Shown piece by piece: positions 56,542 through 64,000 of a stretch of 64,000 nt of DNA. How positions within the stretch are numbered: position 1 is the stretch's first letter; each line of letters opens with the position of its first letter. The stretch comes from a virus (lineage: Duplodnaviria; Caudoviricetes): positions 3,692-67,691 of IMG/VR virus record IMGVR_UViG_3300042975_000105; one strand, given 5' to 3'. The notes under the pieces are model-generated. The model worked only from the letters and a program-made list of their open reading frames with translations, searched no databases and was not told the origin of the DNA. A program made the position numbers and the translations under genes.

Positions 56542-57000
56542 TCATGTCTTTCCAAACAAAAGGATGGCAAACTTATCCAATGCACGATTCTTCCTTTTGT
56601 AGGCAGACGATCGTTCGATGTGAAAATGATCGGCTATGGCATAGACGGCACCCGTTTGTGCATCCTCATCGGCATAAAAGGTTTCCAGTACATACTGCTC
56701 GTCACTGCTTAACTTCTCCCATGCAGGACGGAACCACGCCATGTATTCGATAGCCTGCCGGTACCGTTCCTTTAAGATGTCAATGTCTGCCAAGCCGGAG
56801 ATGATATGTTCTTCTGCTGCATGCGGGTTGCAGGAGTGCGGCATCCCATCGAAGCCGGACGGGTGCAGGCTGGTCATGGCAGCATATGCCTGTTTGATAT
56901 CCTCACTGGTGTTTTCGATAATAAAGTTCATGCTGTCGTAATCCCGGATGGCATCAATAGCACCGCTTCGTTTATTCAGATACTTCCAGATAACACTCAT
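56542..57000 (-). CDS. ArpU/DUF1492-like late regulator
   Basis: W..LS.DEQYVL..FY...IA....IERSSAYKRKNRAL HTH. Confidence 0.72.
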   Translation of the reverse strand: MSVIWKYLNKRSGAIDAIRDYDSMNFIIENTSEDIKQAYAAMTSLHPSGFDGMPHSCNPHAAEEHIISGLADIDILKERYRQAIEYMAWFRPAWEKLSSDEQYVLETFYADEDAQTGAVYAIADHFHIERSSAYKRKNRALDKFAILLFGKT

Positions 57001-58352
57001 AGGCTTCCTCCTCGTAAGCTAGCCCGGACTGCATCAATCAGTGCAGCCTGGGTCTTGTTTTTTTCTTTCAGGGCCTTTAGGATGCGTCCATCGATGGTCC
57101 CTTTCGTGATGATATGCTGAATGACGACGGTTCCAGATGTCTGCCCCTGCCGCCAGAGCCTGGCATTGGTCTGCTGGTACAACTCCAGACTCCATGTTAG
57201 TCCGAACCAAACAAGCGTGGAGCCGCCCTGCTGCAGGTTGAGTCCATGTCCGGCGGATGCCGGATGAATAACCGCAACAGGAATCGTCCCTGCATTCCAA
57301 TCCGCTATATCCTGCGAAGTCTTGATTTCCCGCACGGTAAATCGCTGCCGGATCCGTGTCAGGTCATGCCTGAACCAATAGGCCACCAGCACCGGCTTGC
57401 CGTTGGCGCTTTCGAGGATATCCTCCAACGCATCCAGTTTACGGTCATGAATGGGAATCACCGTCCCGTCATCAGAATAGATCGCACCGTTTGCCATCTG
57501 GGAAAGTTTCATCGTGAGGGATGCCGCATTGGCGACGGTAACATCGCCGTCCGGCAGCTGCAGCACCAGATCCTTCTTCAGTTCTTCGTACCGTTTACGT
57601 TCCGCATCAGATAACTGCACTTCATACTGGCTGCTAATGAGTTCCGGCATAGACAGGTGATCCGTGGATTTCATGGAAATAGAAATATCCGATATTTTTC
57701 TGTATATCTCGTTCTCAGCTCCCGGCAGCGGTCTGTAGCTGAAAACGACCTGCCCGTTCCGCTTGTCCGGAGTAAAGTAGGTGCTGCGGTACTGCCCGAT
57801 GAATCTGCCAAGCCGCTTCCCCATATCCAACAACTTGAACTCGGCAAATAAATCTATCAGACCGTTGCTGGAAGGAGTACCTGTCAGTCCCACCATCCTT
57901 TTTACCTTCGGTCTTGCCTTCATCAGTGCCTTGAACCGCTTGGACTGGTAATTCTTGAAGGACGACAACTCATCCACAACCACCATGTCAAAATCAAAGG
58001 GGATCCCGCTTTTCTCAATCAGCCACTGCACGTTCTCACGGTTGATGATATAAATATCCGCCTGTGCTTTCAGTGCCGACAGTCGTTCCGTCTCTGTACC
58101 CACTGCCACGGTATATTGCAATCGATGTAGATGATCCCAATGCTGTATTTCATTTGCCCATACGGCTCCCACACGCAGCGGGCATATTACTAAAACGCGA
58201 TGAACCTCAAAGCTGTCAAATAAAAGGTCTTGGATTGCCGTCAGCGCGATACTTGTTTTGCCAAGACCCATATCCAACAGGACCGCTGCCGTCGGATGGC
58301 TTTCGATATAAGAAATGGCATATTGTTGGTACTCATGAGGCTTGTATTGCAT
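56997..58352 (-). CDS. SNF2-family helicase
   Basis: DMGLGKT, DELSSFK, GHGLNLQ; homolog of 25370-26740. Confidence 0.92.
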   Translation of the reverse strand: MQYKPHEYQQYAISYIESHPTAAVLLDMGLGKTSIALTAIQDLLFDSFEVHRVLVICPLRVGAVWANEIQHWDHLHRLQYTVAVGTETERLSALKAQADIYIINRENVQWLIEKSGIPFDFDMVVVDELSSFKNYQSKRFKALMKARPKVKRMVGLTGTPSSNGLIDLFAEFKLLDMGKRLGRFIGQYRSTYFTPDKRNGQVVFSYRPLPGAENEIYRKISDISISMKSTDHLSMPELISSQYEVQLSDAERKRYEELKKDLVLQLPDGDVTVANAASLTMKLSQMANGAIYSDDGTVIPIHDRKLDALEDILESANGKPVLVAYWFRHDLTRIRQRFTVREIKTSQDIADWNAGTIPVAVIHPASAGHGLNLQQGGSTLVWFGLTWSLELYQQTNARLWRQGQTSGTVVIQHIITKGTIDGRILKALKEKNKTQAALIDAVRASLRGGSL

Positions 58353-58614
58353 CCAGCATCCCCCCAATCTGGTCTGCATTGTCAATAATATAAACTTGAA
58401 ATCCTAACTTCCGCAGCAGACGATGCCTCGCCAGTTGAAGAGGACGCGGCTTCTTTCCCGGCGCTTTTACTTCCACAAAGGCTATCCTGCCACCCGGCAA
58501 TAATACCAACCGGTCCGGCATCCCATCAAGGCCTGGACTGACAAATTTCAGTGCCACGCCGCCTGTTTTCTTTACTGCTGCTGCGAGTTTCCGTTCAATG
58601 ATTTTTTCTCGCAT
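58333..58614 (-). CDS. VRR-NUC nuclease
   Basis: KFVSPG..GMPDRL...FVEVKAPGKKPRPLQ. Confidence 0.92.
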   Translation of the reverse strand: MREKIIERKLAAAVKKTGGVALKFVSPGLDGMPDRLVLLPGGRIAFVEVKAPGKKPRPLQLARHRLLRKLGFQVYIIDNADQIGGMLDAIQAS

Positions 58615-58656
58615 TTCATATACTCCTTCTCCTGTCATCATTGAAAGTCTTCCTAT

Positions 58657-58816
58657 TTTTGTCCTTTTTGTCACACTGTCCTATAGCGTGTACGAATGAA
58701 AATATAAATATAAATATAAGTAAAAATATGTATCTATATGTATCTGTTACTATAAGGACACATATACCCATATATTTACATACGGTATAGGGACAGAAAG
58801 GACAAAAAGGACAAAA
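58657..58816. other. Putative replication origin of element 2
   Basis: Perfect 16-bp inverted repeat TTTTGTCCTTTTTGTC (58657-58672) / GACAAAAAGGACAAAA (58801-58816) around a very AT-rich core, directly after the primase gene. Confidence 0.6.
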
Positions 58817-58817
58817 G

Positions 58818-61052
58818 TCACTGCTCATACATATGTGGATTGACGAGATATGTCTGTGCAGGCGGCCTTCCTTTTCCCGAATAGTTTTTATTTTCCTTCG
58901 GGGCAATATAGCCGTAATCCACCAGTTGGGTTAAGACCGGCTGTACATCCTCTGCTTTCTTGAAATTGCGGCAGAGCCTCATAAGGTCCCTGCGTGTAAA
59001 TTCCGTCATCCCATTTTTCATTACCACATCCATCACCTTCTTGCTCTGGCTGATAACCGGGTCAGCTCCCATCAGCATAAAAGCCGCCCTTGCATGTTCT
59101 ATAAAATATTCTCCAATCCGGATACTGTTTTTCATGGTTTCCCCATCCACCACAAACGGATCCGATGTAACTAAAAAGTCATGGCTTCGATGTATGGATG
59201 CCCGACACAACAGGGCTGCAATACGCTGAATGTTGCCTACCAGCTTTCCTGCCCAGTCCACAATGTCTGCGTAGGTTCTGTTTAACTCAGGCTCCAGCCT
59301 TTCGGCAAAAGCTTCTATCAGCGCATCTGCCTCCTGCGATAAGGTGATGATTTCTTCCCCGTTTTCACATTCATCCTCCAACAGGTTCCGGATGCACTGC
59401 TCATATTCCCGGTACACGCCATCAGGAACAGATGCTGAACGGTATTTCCGTTTCCCCACAAAAGATGCCGGAATACAGTACAAAAACCGTGCTGTCAGTC
59501 CCCGCCCCCGAAAGATGCCGTTCTGCATCAGGCCGGAAAGAACGCTTGGCTGTACCATAAGCAGCACCGTCAGTGCCGGGTTCATAATGCTTTCACTGTT
59601 CCTGCCGATACGGTCCACCCGGATGCTGTCCCCGGAGTAGCCTTTCAGCATAACGTCAATATTGACGGTTTTGGAATATGCACCTGCCAGCGTATCAAAA
59701 ATCCCGCCTTCCGTGGATAGGATGGCGGCCCGCCCGTTATTATCCGCAAGCACAGACGTCAGCTTTTCTGTGGTAATATCATCCACATACAGCTTCATCG
59801 GCTTCATTTCCTTATATCCAGCAATCTCCTCTGCCATTCTCCGGACCGCTTGTGCATCCGCCTTGCCCTTGGATGCCTGATCTTCCAGCACTTTCTGCCT
59901 GCGTTCCAGTATCCGTTTCTGCATTTTGCTGGTTTCGATTGCCGCTGCATTCTGCACATTCCGCTCTGACTCATATACATTTAAGGGCCGTATCATGGCA
60001 TTTTCGACCGCGGATTTACGTTCGGACGGATTCATGACATTCAGCACAAAAATATTGACAGGCTCTATCCAGTCCGGCTTTGCCCTGATTTTGAATTTTC
60101 CCTGCATGCATACGGACAAGATTGCAATGGCTGCGGTAGCCGCCATATCAACCGGTGTCTGTGTGCTTTCCGAGAGTGCTGCTACATAATCACCGATCGC
60201 CTTTGGCAGAGCATCCAGCGGAAAAGGCGGCAGATGGTATTCATCAAAGGGAATGGGCATCTCCCACTCCGGTTCCTTGTTATATTCCTCTGGTACAATA
60301 TATCCATCCTGCCTTGCCAGATCCCTGCCAAATTTCAAGGCACTGTCCCAGATGATATCCAGTTCTTCCTGTGCTAACGGCGGCATACATCTTTTTGATT
60401 TCTCGATGAAAATATGATGGGCTTCTTCCGTACAGCCATACCGTTTGACGACTTTTCCTGCAAACCGGCTCATGCTTTTATTACGGGAACCCTCTGTGAT
60501 AGTTTCCCTATCCAAATTAGAAAAGGCTTTTTCATTTAAAAATTCATCTATGGTTTGGCTTCCTTCATGCCATATTATGTTCTCTGACTGACAGCCATAC
60601 ATAAACCGTGCCGCATCTGTCGCCCCATTATCAAAGAAGGGTGCCGCCGCATATATACGCTTTTTTAAGTTCGCACAATCTTCTGCACTTACAGTCGGTT
60701 GATGGGGGAAATACACATGATGCCGCGGTCTGGCTGACTTTTTCCCTTTCACTTTTCCGTCATGACGGCTCGGGACAACAACAAAAGAAACATCCGGGAA
60801 AATATTTTGATACATGTCTGGATATATCCAGTCTTTGGGATGATCCGAGTGATCATTGTCACAGTCCATGACATCCACGTTCCCTGCAATATAATCGGCA
60901 TTCGAGCGATGGAAATTTTTATATTCTGCGCTGACATGGTCCCGGCAGATGACAGCCTTAAAATCTTCTTCATTTGTAATATCAGCCTGATTCGGGTAGA
61001 TGCTGTTCTTGGCATTTCCCGTACAATTTGCCGTATATAAAGTGAATTTCAT
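58818..61052 (-). CDS. Primase (AEP/PriCT-1) fused to a DUF3987/YfjI-like ATPase
   Basis: MKFTLYTA N-terminus, EGSRNKSM, PSERKS, DDITTEKL, STEGG, RGRGL.ARFL. Confidence 0.85.
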   Translation of the reverse strand: MKFTLYTANCTGNAKNSIYPNQADITNEEDFKAVICRDHVSAEYKNFHRSNADYIAGNVDVMDCDNDHSDHPKDWIYPDMYQNIFPDVSFVVVPSRHDGKVKGKKSARPRHHVYFPHQPTVSAEDCANLKKRIYAAAPFFDNGATDAARFMYGCQSENIIWHEGSQTIDEFLNEKAFSNLDRETITEGSRNKSMSRFAGKVVKRYGCTEEAHHIFIEKSKRCMPPLAQEELDIIWDSALKFGRDLARQDGYIVPEEYNKEPEWEMPIPFDEYHLPPFPLDALPKAIGDYVAALSESTQTPVDMAATAAIAILSVCMQGKFKIRAKPDWIEPVNIFVLNVMNPSERKSAVENAMIRPLNVYESERNVQNAAAIETSKMQKRILERRQKVLEDQASKGKADAQAVRRMAEEIAGYKEMKPMKLYVDDITTEKLTSVLADNNGRAAILSTEGGIFDTLAGAYSKTVNIDVMLKGYSGDSIRVDRIGRNSESIMNPALTVLLMVQPSVLSGLMQNGIFRGRGLTARFLYCIPASFVGKRKYRSASVPDGVYREYEQCIRNLLEDECENGEEIITLSQEADALIEAFAERLEPELNRTYADIVDWAGKLVGNIQRIAALLCRASIHRSHDFLVTSDPFVVDGETMKNSIRIGEYFIEHARAAFMLMGADPVISQSKKVMDVVMKNGMTEFTRRDLMRLCRNFKKAEDVQPVLTQLVDYGYIAPKENKNYSGKGRPPAQTYLVNPHMYEQ

Positions 61053-61477
61053 CGGACCGTCTCCTTTAAATCGCTGCCAAAGTAACGCAGTTTGTAATTC
61101 TTCCTTTTGGCTCTCCTGATTTCGGCATCCATTCCCGCCGATATGATATCTCCAAATACCCACACCTCACTGCATTGGCTCATCAGTACATTGCCAAAGT
61201 GTAGTCCCAGTTCACGTTCCGTTATGTCGGTATCATCAAGGAACTGCGGAAACAGCAAATGTGGGGCAATAGGGATATACCCCTGCTCCACCGCAAAGCG
61301 ACTATATCGTCTTGCATTGGCAATGTTTCCGGGCATATCCCCTGAAAACGGGGAGCATACATATACCAGAGGTCTGTATGCTCTTGCCGCCTTCGCTTCC
61401 TGTTCGATATGGGATAAGGCTTCGTATGGGGTCGGATCCGGATATCCTTCACTGTTACGTCTGCTCACACCCACCAT
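61049..61477 (-). CDS. DUF4406-like protein
   Basis: Homolog of 29447-29860. Confidence 0.7.
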   Translation of the reverse strand: MVGVSRRNSEGYPDPTPYEALSHIEQEAKAARAYRPLVYVCSPFSGDMPGNIANARRYSRFAVEQGYIPIAPHLLFPQFLDDTDITERELGLHFGNVLMSQCSEVWVFGDIISAGMDAEIRRAKRKNYKLRYFGSDLKETVR

Positions 61478-61679
61478 GTTTACCTCCCGCCAGCTTTTTG
61501 CCGCAGCTGTCACACAACACCGATGTACCGAAAAGATCAACCTTGCCATCGGCAAATACCTCTGCCAAGTCAACCTGCACTTCTGAGCCACAATGTGGGC
61601 AGCGGCAGAATACATTCTCGTCATTGATTTCAATGGAAATCCCTACCGTATCATTCAATTTCTCTTTTACATAAAACAT
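61455..61679 (-). CDS. Small zinc-finger protein
   Basis: Homolog of 29838-30062. Confidence 0.7.
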   Translation of the reverse strand: MFYVKEKLNDTVGISIEINDENVFCRCPHCGSEVQVDLAEVFADGKVDLFGTSVLCDSCGKKLAGGKHGGCEQT

Positions 61680-61681
61680 AC

Positions 61682-62347
61682 TTATCGGTCCTCCTCTAAT
61701 TTTGCTTTGTACCATTCCAAATGTCGTTTACGGTCTTCATAATTGGGAAAAGCTACGAGCAGTCCCACATCAACCTTCTGCAGGGTTTCCAACATATCAA
61801 TTTGATCTTTAGCCAGATAGGGCCTGATACTCGTTCCCTTTTCGATCCCATTGGCAAGCCTGAACTGCTTGGCTGTCATACCCAGCACGATACGGTTTAA
61901 CATATTGCATTCATTGCTGAAGTGATACGGCTTCGGGTTCTCATGGAGCAGCTTGATGTTTTCTGTAAGAAGCGGAAACTCCTGTCTCGCCGATACCAGT
62001 GTCTGAATGAATTTTTCCATTTCGTTGAAACGCCTGATATACAGTTCCTTGAAATGTGCTGCTTTTTTCCCTGTAAATCCCATGCCAAGTGCTGTGAATC
62101 CATCCCGCGTAATTGCATACCGGCGCTGCTTTCTATTCCACTGATCGGTGTACGTGGTTGGCACAAAATTGTGCCGACCAAATTCTGCACTAAATCCGGA
62201 ATCAGGCGAAAGGATCGCGTCAATGTTACGCAGTACCGTTTTGTGCTTCTTCTCAAAAAATTCAGAAACATATAGGCTGTCCACCCTTGCTGTATCATGG
62301 GTGTCGGCAAAAATGCCGTATTGGTCTTTCGGTATTAATTCCTTCAT
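61682..62347 (-). CDS. rha: Rha-family phage regulator
   Basis: Homolog of 30066-30728. Confidence 0.87.
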   Translation of the reverse strand: MKELIPKDQYGIFADTHDTARVDSLYVSEFFEKKHKTVLRNIDAILSPDSGFSAEFGRHNFVPTTYTDQWNRKQRRYAITRDGFTALGMGFTGKKAAHFKELYIRRFNEMEKFIQTLVSARQEFPLLTENIKLLHENPKPYHFSNECNMLNRIVLGMTAKQFRLANGIEKGTSIRPYLAKDQIDMLETLQKVDVGLLVAFPNYEDRKRHLEWYKAKLEEDR

Positions 62348-62428: not shown

Positions 62429-63022
62429 TTAATCTTTTTTATAGAAACTGCATTCGTATCCGTCTGCACGAAGGAGAAGTCCGCTGATCCAAGGTGGCGT
62501 CCTGCCCATTTGCTCACAGATGGAATCAAGAGATACATCCATGCTGCACTCCATGATCAGCTCATCATGGACATGTCCACAGATAAAATAATGGGATAAT
62601 GTCCGCATGGCATAGGCGAGAATATCCCGGCTGATGGCCTGGACAATGTTTTCCACGAACTTTGGGCCGTAGCTTTCAATCCGTTCCCATTTTTTGGTGC
62701 CGCCAACGCCCTCATAGGTAACGGCTTCACCACCGAAACGGTTCTCTCCTATTCGTGGCTTCACGTAGGACAGATGCCTGCCGCTTGGCAACTGGATAAA
62801 CAACATCCCACTCTGATAAACAAACCGAATGCCATGCGTTTCAGTCAGCATATGCCGCTGGACCGTATTCCTAACGCACCTGTCCACATCCCACCAAAAC
62901 CGCACGATATTCGGATTGGCTGACCGCCATGAATCCACCAGTGGCTGTAGTTCTTCTTCTGCAAGTCCCATATCGAGCGCACCCATTGCTTTCAAGGCAC
63001 CGACCGAGCCGCCGTATCCACA
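62429..63022 (-). pseudogene. Family A DNA polymerase C-extein (gene interrupted by IS30 further upstream)
   Basis: CGYGGSVGALKAMG...HVHDE...GYECSFYKKD, nearly identical in protein to the end of 31605-33593. Confidence 0.92.
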
Positions 63023-63412
63023 GTTGTGGACGAGTTTCCCCGATACGGTAAAACGATGATGCTTTCCGGCATTTCGTATGTCATAAAGTCGAGCCGTGCG
63101 CGTATTAGATGCCAGTTCTTTCTCTTTTCGAACACTGCAAGTTCTGCTGACGCAATAATCTCGTCCCGGCTCATCCCCTGAGTCAGCTTTTTTGTGACTA
63201 CACTTCTTGCATATGGCCAATATTGCTGCTCGAATTTTGTCAACACCGTTCTCCGTTGATTTATACAATTTTCTTGATGTGTCGCAAACCTCAGATTCCC
63301 CGGTTGATAGTGGCTGTTCGTATCGATTCGGTCTATCTCCATTTCTCGCCCCGGGAGTCCAAAATTCTTTATCATATACAGACCTGCTTCTGTTACACTT
63401 ACAAAATTGAAA
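62992..63412 (-). CDS. HNH homing endonuclease in the +1 frame of the intein (5' end cut by IS30)
   Basis: EIDRIDTNSHYQPGNLRFATHQENCINQRR; stop at 62992-62994 lies inside the C-extein. Confidence 0.78.
63023..63412 (-). mobile_element. Intein, C-terminal 130 codons, in the polymerase frame
   Basis: Ends RLYDIRNAGKHHRFTVSGKLVHN followed by Cys, at the site that reads AELA|CGYGG in the element-1 polymerase. Confidence 0.9.
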
Positions 63413-64000
63413 CGTAAATTGTAGAATGAAATTGAACACTAAAACTAAATAAAAAGATCCATAGGATTGCATCAATGGTAAAATTAAGTTACGACACAAA
63501 ATTAACCGGAGGCAATCACTATGGACTACCTAAATAATACCATTAATACCCTACCTCGCGAAAGAGGACAACACTTAAGATTTGAAGATCGATGCGAAAT
63601 CAAAGCGCTCCATAAGCAAGGTTACTCTTATCGCCAGATTGCAAAAGCACTTAATTGCTCACCTAGTACTGTGGGCTACGAATTAAAACGTGGCACTGCA
63701 ACTAAGACGACACATCGAGGCAGACCAACAGAGTATGTACCTAGTCGAGGTCAAGCCGTTTACTATGAAAACAGAAAACGTTCTGGTCGTAAACAGCGCA
63801 TTACGTCTGAAAGTCCATTTGCTATTTGGGTTGCAGAGCAAGTTAAAAAAGCTAACTGGTCATTAGACGTATGTGCTGGCTATGCTAAGAAGCATAATCT
63901 GTTTACTGAAGAGGAACTTGTATGTGCTAAAACGCTGTATAACGCCCTTAATCAATCACGCCTACCATTATCCCTATTCGATGTACCAGAAACTGCTTAG
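63413..64000 (+). mobile_element. IS30-family element (left end plus transposase 5' part, CDS from 63521)
   Basis: IR-like CGTAAATTGTAGAATGAAATTGAAC at ~63413; HTH LRFEDRCEI..L..GYSYRQIA..L..SPSTV.YELKRG, WSLD, TLYN. Confidence 0.88.

Follow-up and report, generated by a model that had tools for sequence, protein, structure and literature searches.

The window analysed here is a stretch of 64,000 nucleotides corresponding to bases 3692–67691 of a single 67.7 kb contig, the end of which lies inside an insertion sequence. Close to this end, the minus strand of the window encodes the C-extein of a phage-type family A DNA polymerase (62429..63022), with 197 codons counted from the +1 Cys (63020–63022) and a stop at 62429–62431. 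[quoted passage not shown] It is preceded in the polymerase frame by the 3′ remnant of an intein (63023..63416, minus strand), covering codons 179–309 of a 309-codon class-1 intein. Over the same DNA, the +1 frame contains the 3′ remnant of an HNH-like endonuclease gene (62992..63416, minus strand; 140 codons plus TGA at 62992–62994). The intein is cut off by the left end of an IS30-family insertion sequence (63417..64000, plus strand), the transposase gene of which extends on the plus strand from 63521 to the contig end (HTH_38, E 1.5e-17); its match to NF033563 (IS30 transposase, E 4e-12) is below the cutoff because just 159 amino acids are present.

Downstream of the polymerase, the minus strand carries a phage replication module (window 56997–62347) consisting of a Rha regulator (61682–62347), a DUF7768 protein (61049–61633), a DUF3987 primase/helicase-like protein (58818–61163), VRR-NUC (58333–58674) and an SNF2 helicase (56997–58385). 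This gene order is typical of Streptococcus Javan or ‘Heliusvirales’-type prophages, the source of the homologues described below.

The polymerase frame on the minus strand (frame A) extends uninterrupted from within the insertion sequence to the stop at 62429–62431 (ORF 62429–63499). From the IS junction to the last intein codon, AAC (63023–63025), we counted 131 stop-free codons, in agreement with an earlier sequence-only reading of this DNA, which had described 130 open codons up to a canonical intein end. The intein C-terminus reads ...RLYDIRNAGKHHRFTVSGKLVHN, followed by Cys (63020–63022) and GYGG, and thus has the canonical ...VHN/C end. Blocks F/G (ARLYDIRNAGKHHRFTVSGKLVHN, 63023–63094, minus strand) read ...YDIRNAGKHHRFTVSGKLVHN/CGYGG, showing the His-Asn end and the +1 Cys that characterise class-1 inteins; codons 179 to ~282 of the remnant form its stop-free ‘linker’ part on the same strand and in the same frame. 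The +1 frame (frame B) is open from 63416 through the splice blocks to its TGA inside the C-extein, just as the sequence-only reading had it; the stop lies 28 nt into the C-extein. The extent of 62992–63412 given there is correct at the stop, but the IS junction lies four bases away, at 63416/63417, according to the alignment with the uninterrupted alleles L005 and L028, to which homology begins at window position 63416. The nuclease remnant corresponds to residues ~94–233 numbered from an internal Met85, and the full gene has lost ~130 codons at its N-terminal end. It retains the core motif E-I-D-R-I-D...Y...G-N...N..N.R (63250..63339, minus strand, +1 frame; EIDRIDTNSHYQPGNLRFATHQEN) and matches the PHROG HNH families phrog_374 (E 1e-10) and phrog_3377 (E 8e-9).

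Homologues were collected by tblastn of the +1 peptide, which gave matches at 55–65% identity beneath single CDSs of 960–968 amino acids annotated as ‘DNA polymerase’. These matches were found in Streptococcus phages (Javan255 and others, PhiSdyV1524) and in the Gardnerella phage vB_Gva_AB1, and each of them lies +1 relative to the annotated, uninterrupted polymerase CDS. Scans of IMG/VR and GTDB genomes yielded 68 more loci, with hosts including Megasphaera, Allobaculum, Acidaminococcus, Selenomonas, Eubacterium, Lachnospiraceae, Ruminococcus and some Spirochaete MAGs. A full-length intein at the same site was present in 51 loci from Bacillota, Gardnerella and Spirochaete prophages, and in nearly all of them it comprises 309 codons. 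In all 51, the polymerase frame is free of stops and the nuclease lies in the +1 frame, the +2 frame containing 10–31 stops; the +1 ORF is intact in 48 and broken in three. Another 13 loci carry mini-inteins of 120–146 codons at this site, from which the nuclease is deleted.

The ends of the polymerase-frame insert show the sequence features of a splicing domain. Across 36 homologues, Cys1 (block A) directly follows the N-extein and is invariant, block B has the form TxxH (T-P/A-D-H) with a nearly invariant T55 and an invariant H58, and D290, H298, H308 and N309 of blocks F/G are invariant. Block B is absent from the window, as is Cys1, which was removed with the IS insertion. AlphaFold2 models were built with 36-sequence alignments, using the L028 homologue, from a Megasphaera sueciensis prophage, for the polymerase-frame product. 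Here, residues 1–85 and 283–309 reached a pLDDT of ~90, and residues 86–282 stayed below 35 with no secondary structure. Searches against Pfam and NCBIfam gave no match for either frame. In agreement with the earlier observation, the middle of the polymerase frame has no recognisable domain. All listed Foldseek matches of the polymerase-frame model are inteins or Hint-fold autoprocessing domains (probability ~1.0), led by gp41-1, Npu DnaE, Ssp DnaB and a DnaX mini-intein and also including bacterial intein-like, BIL2 and hedgehog C-terminal domains; the match to Npu DnaE had a TM(target) of 0.53 over 99 columns with an rmsd of 2.6. A profile search of the intein against PDB sequences returned only non-significant matches, to the Neq Pol and DnaE inteins. 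With Cys1, TxxH, blocks F/G and a predicted Hint fold, the insert has the hallmarks of a class-1 intein, and its precursor may splice. An indirect sign of splicing is that read-through is preserved in 51/51 sequences although the interrupted gene is essential for replication.

Phage DNA polymerase genes often hold group I introns with HNH genes, for example in SPO1 and T7-like phages, and by this precedent the insert might act at the RNA level, as a group I intron or similar element that harbours an independent endonuclease gene. We give such a reading next to no weight, as no polymerase-frame stop occurs in any of the 51 full-length inserts, Cys1, TxxH, block F and the HN/C end are invariant, and the modelled fold is of the Hint type with Foldseek matches to inteins or related Hint-fold domains throughout. 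Furthermore, an Rfam search of L028 and L009 found no family and hence no group I intron.

The selection acting on the two frames was analysed in a stack of 44 unique gap-free sequences. In the exteins and intein codons 1–60, the most variable codon position is the wobble position of the polymerase frame; over codons ~61–290 the variability moves to the wobble position of the +1 frame and then reverts. All three codon positions are constrained at codons ~71–95 and ~281–300. For codons 96–285, Nei–Gojobori pN/pS was 1.44 in the polymerase frame, 0.29 in the +1 frame and 1.16 in the +2 frame, with median amino acid identities of 31%, 67% and 32%, respectively. The middle of the polymerase frame thus evolves like non-coding sequence, yet without stops. 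When synonymous +1 codons were reshuffled, 9.3 polymerase-frame stops were expected per sequence and none was observed (P(none) ~7e-5), although the sequences are phylogenetically related, so that such shuffle probabilities overstate independence. T-ending +1 codons were never found before codons starting with AA, AG or GA (0/2513), compared with 1664/5803 (28.7%) elsewhere.

The same bias is visible in the window alone, where T-ending +1 codons precede AA, AG or GA in 0/32 cases versus 24/73 elsewhere, and where the synonymous +1 shuffle produced a mean of 5.3 frame-A stops with P(0) = 1.5e-4. The odds of roughly 0.002 that had been quoted for a stop-free shadow, (61/64)^130, are arithmetically right and, if anything, conservative. 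These patterns indicate selection on the encoded protein in the nuclease frame, and in the polymerase-frame middle only on its staying open. Purifying selection, which the sequence-only reading had proposed to test on both frames, is therefore found for the +1 frame but not for the polymerase-frame middle, which is kept stop-free only.

This has consequences for the idea that the out-of-frame arrangement is a private or lineage-specific frameshift, in which an ordinary intein with its HNH domain in frame would have been the ancestor and the present state would reflect decay. [quoted passage not shown] Decay would, however, lead to stops in both frames, and what we observe is a +1 frame under purifying selection next to a polymerase frame that is actively kept free of stops. 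The sequence-only reading had proposed searching homologues for an in-frame HNH and for stops in the +1 frame: none of the 51 full-length inteins has the nuclease in frame with the intein, the +1 position being shared across very diverged hosts, and the high proportion of intact +1 ORFs (48/51) goes along with the low pN/pS and high amino acid identity given above. In addition, the +1 layout recurs in a paralogous intein that occupies a different site (L057, L068, APSE-1). We therefore regard decay from an in-frame ancestor as having a negligible probability.

The signals that could start translation of the nuclease lie within the splicing domain. All 44 sequences have an open +1 frame from codon 47 on, compared with ~11 expected. 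Glu45 is encoded by GAG in 40/42 (background 0.41) and Tyr49 by TAT in 41/44 (background 0.53), and together these two codon choices build GAGG-9 nt-ATG in the +1 frame. TAC is used at Tyr49 in three sequences, in two of which (L005 and L028) an ATG one codon further on compensates. Overall, GAGG and ATG are both present in 40/44 sequences and the pair is missing in 4/44, and the conserved internal start and ribosome binding site suggested earlier for the nuclease were thus found. We take this ATG (ATG48) as the start of the predicted nuclease, giving a product of ~270 residues, the first ~37 codons of which overprint intein block B.

A start at ATG85, which would give the N-terminus typical of the family (MVGxQYGW), was considered and rejected: the sole SD-like sequence, GGAG, abuts the ATG, the codon is ATG in 40/51 and non-ATG in 11/51, and constraint on the +1 frame starts upstream of it. 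A stretch of ~40 nt in this region (intein codons ~73–87, e.g. L028:2643–2690) is almost invariant at all codon positions among the 44 diverged sequences and reads GCCGCC.CC.GCGGCGCACATCTC.TACAAACCGGA.ATGGT. Dual coding explains much of this conservation, and a GCCGC/GCGGC hairpin or a translation signal is possible there. A -35/-10 promoter in this stretch before ATG85 was discarded since the spacing is unfit.

Alternatively, the nuclease might not be translated alone, but arise by programmed +1 ribosomal frameshifting as a fusion of the N-extein, the intein N-domain and HNH. The +1 frame is open and constrained for 37 codons before Met85, within the splicing domain, and the GGAG directly before ATG85 is too close to act as a Shine-Dalgarno sequence; both would fit such a fusion. 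On the other hand, the well-spaced GAGG-9 nt-ATG is kept by synonymous choice in 40/44 sequences, with the shifted ATG compensating in L005 and L028. Moreover, a +1-frame stop is present two to three codons upstream of the GAGG-linked ATG in most sequences, which confines any shift to a tiny window, and a conserved slippery or stall motif was not seen in that tiny window. Frameshifting is therefore improbable in our view. The proposal of a dual-coded element with a separately made nuclease is supported at the level of the family, the conserved internal Shine-Dalgarno sequence and ATG favouring independent translation.

The +1 product was modelled with a mean pLDDT of 76 and has two CxxC pairs in an N-terminal beta-barrel, followed by a beta-beta-alpha unit (strands 119–122 and 134–137, helix 139–145) and a helical C-terminal domain. 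E119, D121, R122, Y129, N133, N142, N145 and R147 are invariant among the 36 aligned sequences. They include the structural and metal-ligand Asn residues (N133, N142, N145) and Tyr129, which lies in the loop between the two strands. The general-base His expected at the end of strand 1 is missing, the position being occupied by Arg122 in 36/36 sequences, and the motif contains no invariant His. The description of the +1 frame as an HNH nuclease in the sequence-only reading stands as far as the PHROG HNH matches go and has to be qualified with respect to the missing Pfam match and the replacement of the first His by Arg. Using VIA-align, residues 63–147 had the HNH enzyme PacI as their best solved match (Z 5.2, which is weak; rmsd 2.9, 72 aligned, 17% identity), and residues 1–49 matched SH3/Tudor-like structures. 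No meaningful match was returned by Foldseek for the complete nuclease model, and a profile search of the nuclease against PDB sequences found nothing.

PacI (PDB 3m7k; His-Me group 20, PMC5714182) has a small beta-beta-alpha-metal core with Cys-bound zinc, a putative counterpart of which is modelled in the +1 protein, and like the latter it lacks the general-base His, with a Tyr in the omega loop. By analogy, the invariant Tyr129 could replace the general-base His as Tyr does in PacI, and the mechanism may be PacI-like. In contrast to the +1 protein, PacI is a dimeric restriction enzyme and not a homing enzyme, and with 17% identity and a weak Z score homology between the two is not established.

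The +1 protein might also be conserved for another purpose, as a DNA-binding, maturase-like or phage-domesticated factor without nuclease activity. Such a role would agree with the Arg found in place of the first His in 36/36 sequences and with the lack of a Pfam HNH match, and some His-Me groups without the His are inactive (PMC5714182). However, the loop residue Tyr129 is invariant, and PacI uses such a Tyr instead of His; the metal and structural Asn residues as well as the Zn-ribbon are invariant, too. In addition, the DR(I)(D/N) motif is shared by many free-standing phage genes annotated as HNH endonuclease, and the coexistence of full, mini and empty alleles described below is the pattern expected from an active homing enzyme. 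We thus consider a non-nuclease function unlikely, though less so than ribosomal frameshifting, and presume nuclease chemistry for this protein despite the absent canonical first His.

The distribution of the intein is sporadic. The best 80 IMG/VR polymerases nearest to the window C-extein comprise 75 with an empty site and five with an intein. Of the empty sites, 67 have Leu and eight have Cys at the +1 position, and all intein-bearing alleles with the junction read have Cys at +1. With Leu in most empty alleles and Cys in the intein alleles, homing would need co-conversion or selection of this codon. The closest relative of the window copy (97% amino acid identity) carries a mini-intein, and metagenome 3300042975 holds full, mini and IS-cut alleles. 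As judged from these sequences, the spread of full, mini and empty alleles is the pattern of a homing cycle. In a crude comparison, the identity of the inteins and that of the flanking exteins showed co-divergence (r = 0.70), with no clear incongruent pair or recent lateral transfer; with no clear recent transfer, mobility is proposed from the patchy distribution only.

A paralogous intein occupies a second site of the same polymerase family (L057:3720–4610, L068:1474–2361 and APSE-1, NC_000935, 28827–31808). Its host frame is likewise free of stops, its +1 frame contains an HNH-like gene of the DR(I)(D/N) type, and its junctions read ...GGK(L/F)VEN/C in L057 and L068 and ...TYGGKS/C in APSE-1. 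A third intein site (NRTGRW/C...) was observed in the N-extein of L005 (L005:1075–1954), where an ordinary in-frame LAGLIDADG-like intein is found, with zero stops in frame and 13 and 34 in the other frames.

In the window, the IS30 element is inserted at intein codon 178/179, and intein codons 1–178 together with everything upstream have been removed. The window copy thereby lost the N-extein, the N-terminal splicing domain and, from the nuclease gene, the Shine-Dalgarno sequence, the ATG and ~130 codons including both CxxC pairs. An independent sister contig, L004 (94% identical), has the same IS30 insertion, which indicates that the broken allele was inherited and is not an assembly artefact. 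The N-terminal half of the polymerase was sought and is not adjacent in L004, and the window contig ends inside the insertion sequence. In L004 (683–2720), the IS30 copy is itself cut after ~240 bp by an IS66-family element with TnpB-like and transposase-like ORFs, followed by an EAL-domain gene. Both remnant frames in the window are intact and 97–99% identical to the working copies in L028 and L005, so the insertion is recent. The window copy is an inactive, IS-truncated relic of recent origin in which neither frame has decayed yet. Since both genes are without their 5′ parts, neither a complete polymerase nor a complete nuclease can be produced from this locus. A functional split intein created by the insertion sequence was also considered, as ORF 62429–63499 begins at a TTG inside the IS; this is unsupported, and the N-part is not on the record.

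Taken together, we assign a probability of roughly 85% to the reading that the window contains the 3′ stump of a mobile class-1 intein that is dual-coded with a separate, nuclease-like gene in the +1 frame and was cut here by an IS30 element. The site of the intein is motif B of the prophage polymerase, a family A enzyme, with ...AELA on one side and (C)GYGG on the other. In intact relatives, the polymerase frame supplies the Hint splicing domain (codons 1–~85 and ~283–309) with a linker of ~200 residues, which has no conserved sequence or fold and is selected just against stops, which would allow the precursor to be made and spliced. The +1 frame (codons ~48–318) encodes a separate nuclease-like protein of ~230–270 residues, its HNH-like beta-beta-alpha core flanked by a Zn-ribbon (2 x CxxC) and a helical C-terminal domain. 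This protein would be translated from its own GAGG Shine-Dalgarno sequence and ATG, built by synonymous codons within the splicing domain, and would cut intein-less alleles, the repair of which would copy the intein in (homing). In the window, insertion of the IS30-family element at codon 178/179 has left a dead remnant.

Several known systems resemble this arrangement in part. Endonucleases in a frame other than that of the intein were noted by Gorbalenya in 1998, as cited in bioRxiv 10.1101/2025.01.02.630785 and 10.64898/2026.09.14.751524. A cyanobacterial dnaX intein with an out-of-frame LAGLIDADG endonuclease was described by Phillips, DeSimone & Gogarten (bioRxiv 10.64898/2026.09.14.751524). 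It likewise has a Hint domain in the host frame, a disordered and fast-evolving host-frame middle, an overlapping-frame endonuclease under purifying selection with an upstream Shine-Dalgarno sequence, and coexisting mini-intein and empty alleles. The dnaX case involves LAGLIDADG, the +2 frame and a cellular dnaX gene, whereas here the nuclease is HNH-like and His-less, lies in the +1 frame and belongs to a prophage family A polymerase; in the polymerase intein, the two ends of the nuclease ORF also overlap the splicing blocks themselves. Non-canonical inteins of actinobacteriophages contain an endonuclease VII-like HEN in frame 3 and share the in-frame middle without recognisable structure, but differ in nuclease family, host clade and host genes, and the HNH inteins of that survey are in frame (bioRxiv 10.1101/2025.01.02.630785).

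The insertion in ShiLan carries an out-of-frame HNH without splicing domains (PMC11855218). As in the polymerase intein, a different frame of the insertion conceals an HNH gene, which has zinc fingers, the host gene gains no stop, and the stop of the HNH gene is located right where the insertion ends. In contrast, no splicing domain is detectable and the insertion is thought to remain as a protein loop, while the flanks of the polymerase insert are those of a class-1 intein. Fractured genes (Dassa et al. 2009, PMC2677866) also have a separate nuclease gene at the endonuclease-insertion point of an intein, and short coding overlaps with the intein part occur. There, however, the host gene is physically divided, trans-splicing joins its products, and the nucleases belong to the GIY-YIG or Vsr-like kinds, whereas the polymerase intein keeps read-through and is contiguous.

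A further known example is found in the same polymerase family, in APSE-1 (NC_000935), where P45 contains a nested ORF, P46, annotated as ‘HNH endonuclease’. P46 starts 2254 nt into P45, which places it in the +1 frame, and is homologous to the +1 nuclease (34% identity over the core, E 2e-10). The paralogous intein of APSE-1 (CLAKGTLVLT...LIVHN/C) contains a 222-codon +1 ORF of the DR(I)N-type family; unlike in the window, the insertion is located at site c, in the C-terminal part of the polymerase, and site b is empty (ELGLGYGG). The statement of the sequence-only reading that no such intein was well described is therefore out of date, considering bioRxiv 10.1101/2025.01.02.630785 and 10.64898/2026.09.14.751524 and the APSE-1 annotation. 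The out-of-frame-nuclease architecture itself is already known from the dnaX intein, the actinophage inteins and the P45/P46 annotation.

Our literature search found no paper on the polymerase intein family described here. We tentatively propose, at slightly less than even odds, that these elements form a large, old and unpublished intein clade at no fewer than two sites of phage family A polymerases, including that of APSE-1. Its out-of-frame nuclease would be obligate and ancestral, with translation signals placed at synonymous positions within the splicing domain, and would itself be a His-less, PacI-like and tyrosine-dependent His-Me finger.

The usual textbook picture of an intein is a splicing domain fused in frame to a homing endonuclease. 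With ~50 diverged sequences and almost no indels, the family described here offers a clean case of two separate genes on shared DNA. Because splicing domain and nuclease are encoded apart, the constraints on each of them show up directly in the sequences, with a ‘no stop’ requirement only on the linker, ordinary purifying selection on the nuclease and start signals at synonymous sites. The linker would represent a natural segment of ~200 residues that tolerates any stop-free sequence inside an intein predicted to be working. The nested nuclease gene is uncalled in most records, which points to a systematic gap in annotation. The window itself adds only a decayed example, illustrating IS insertion as one way in which such elements die. 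At the level of the family, our results support the view that inteins gain endonucleases through the invasion of free-standing genes.
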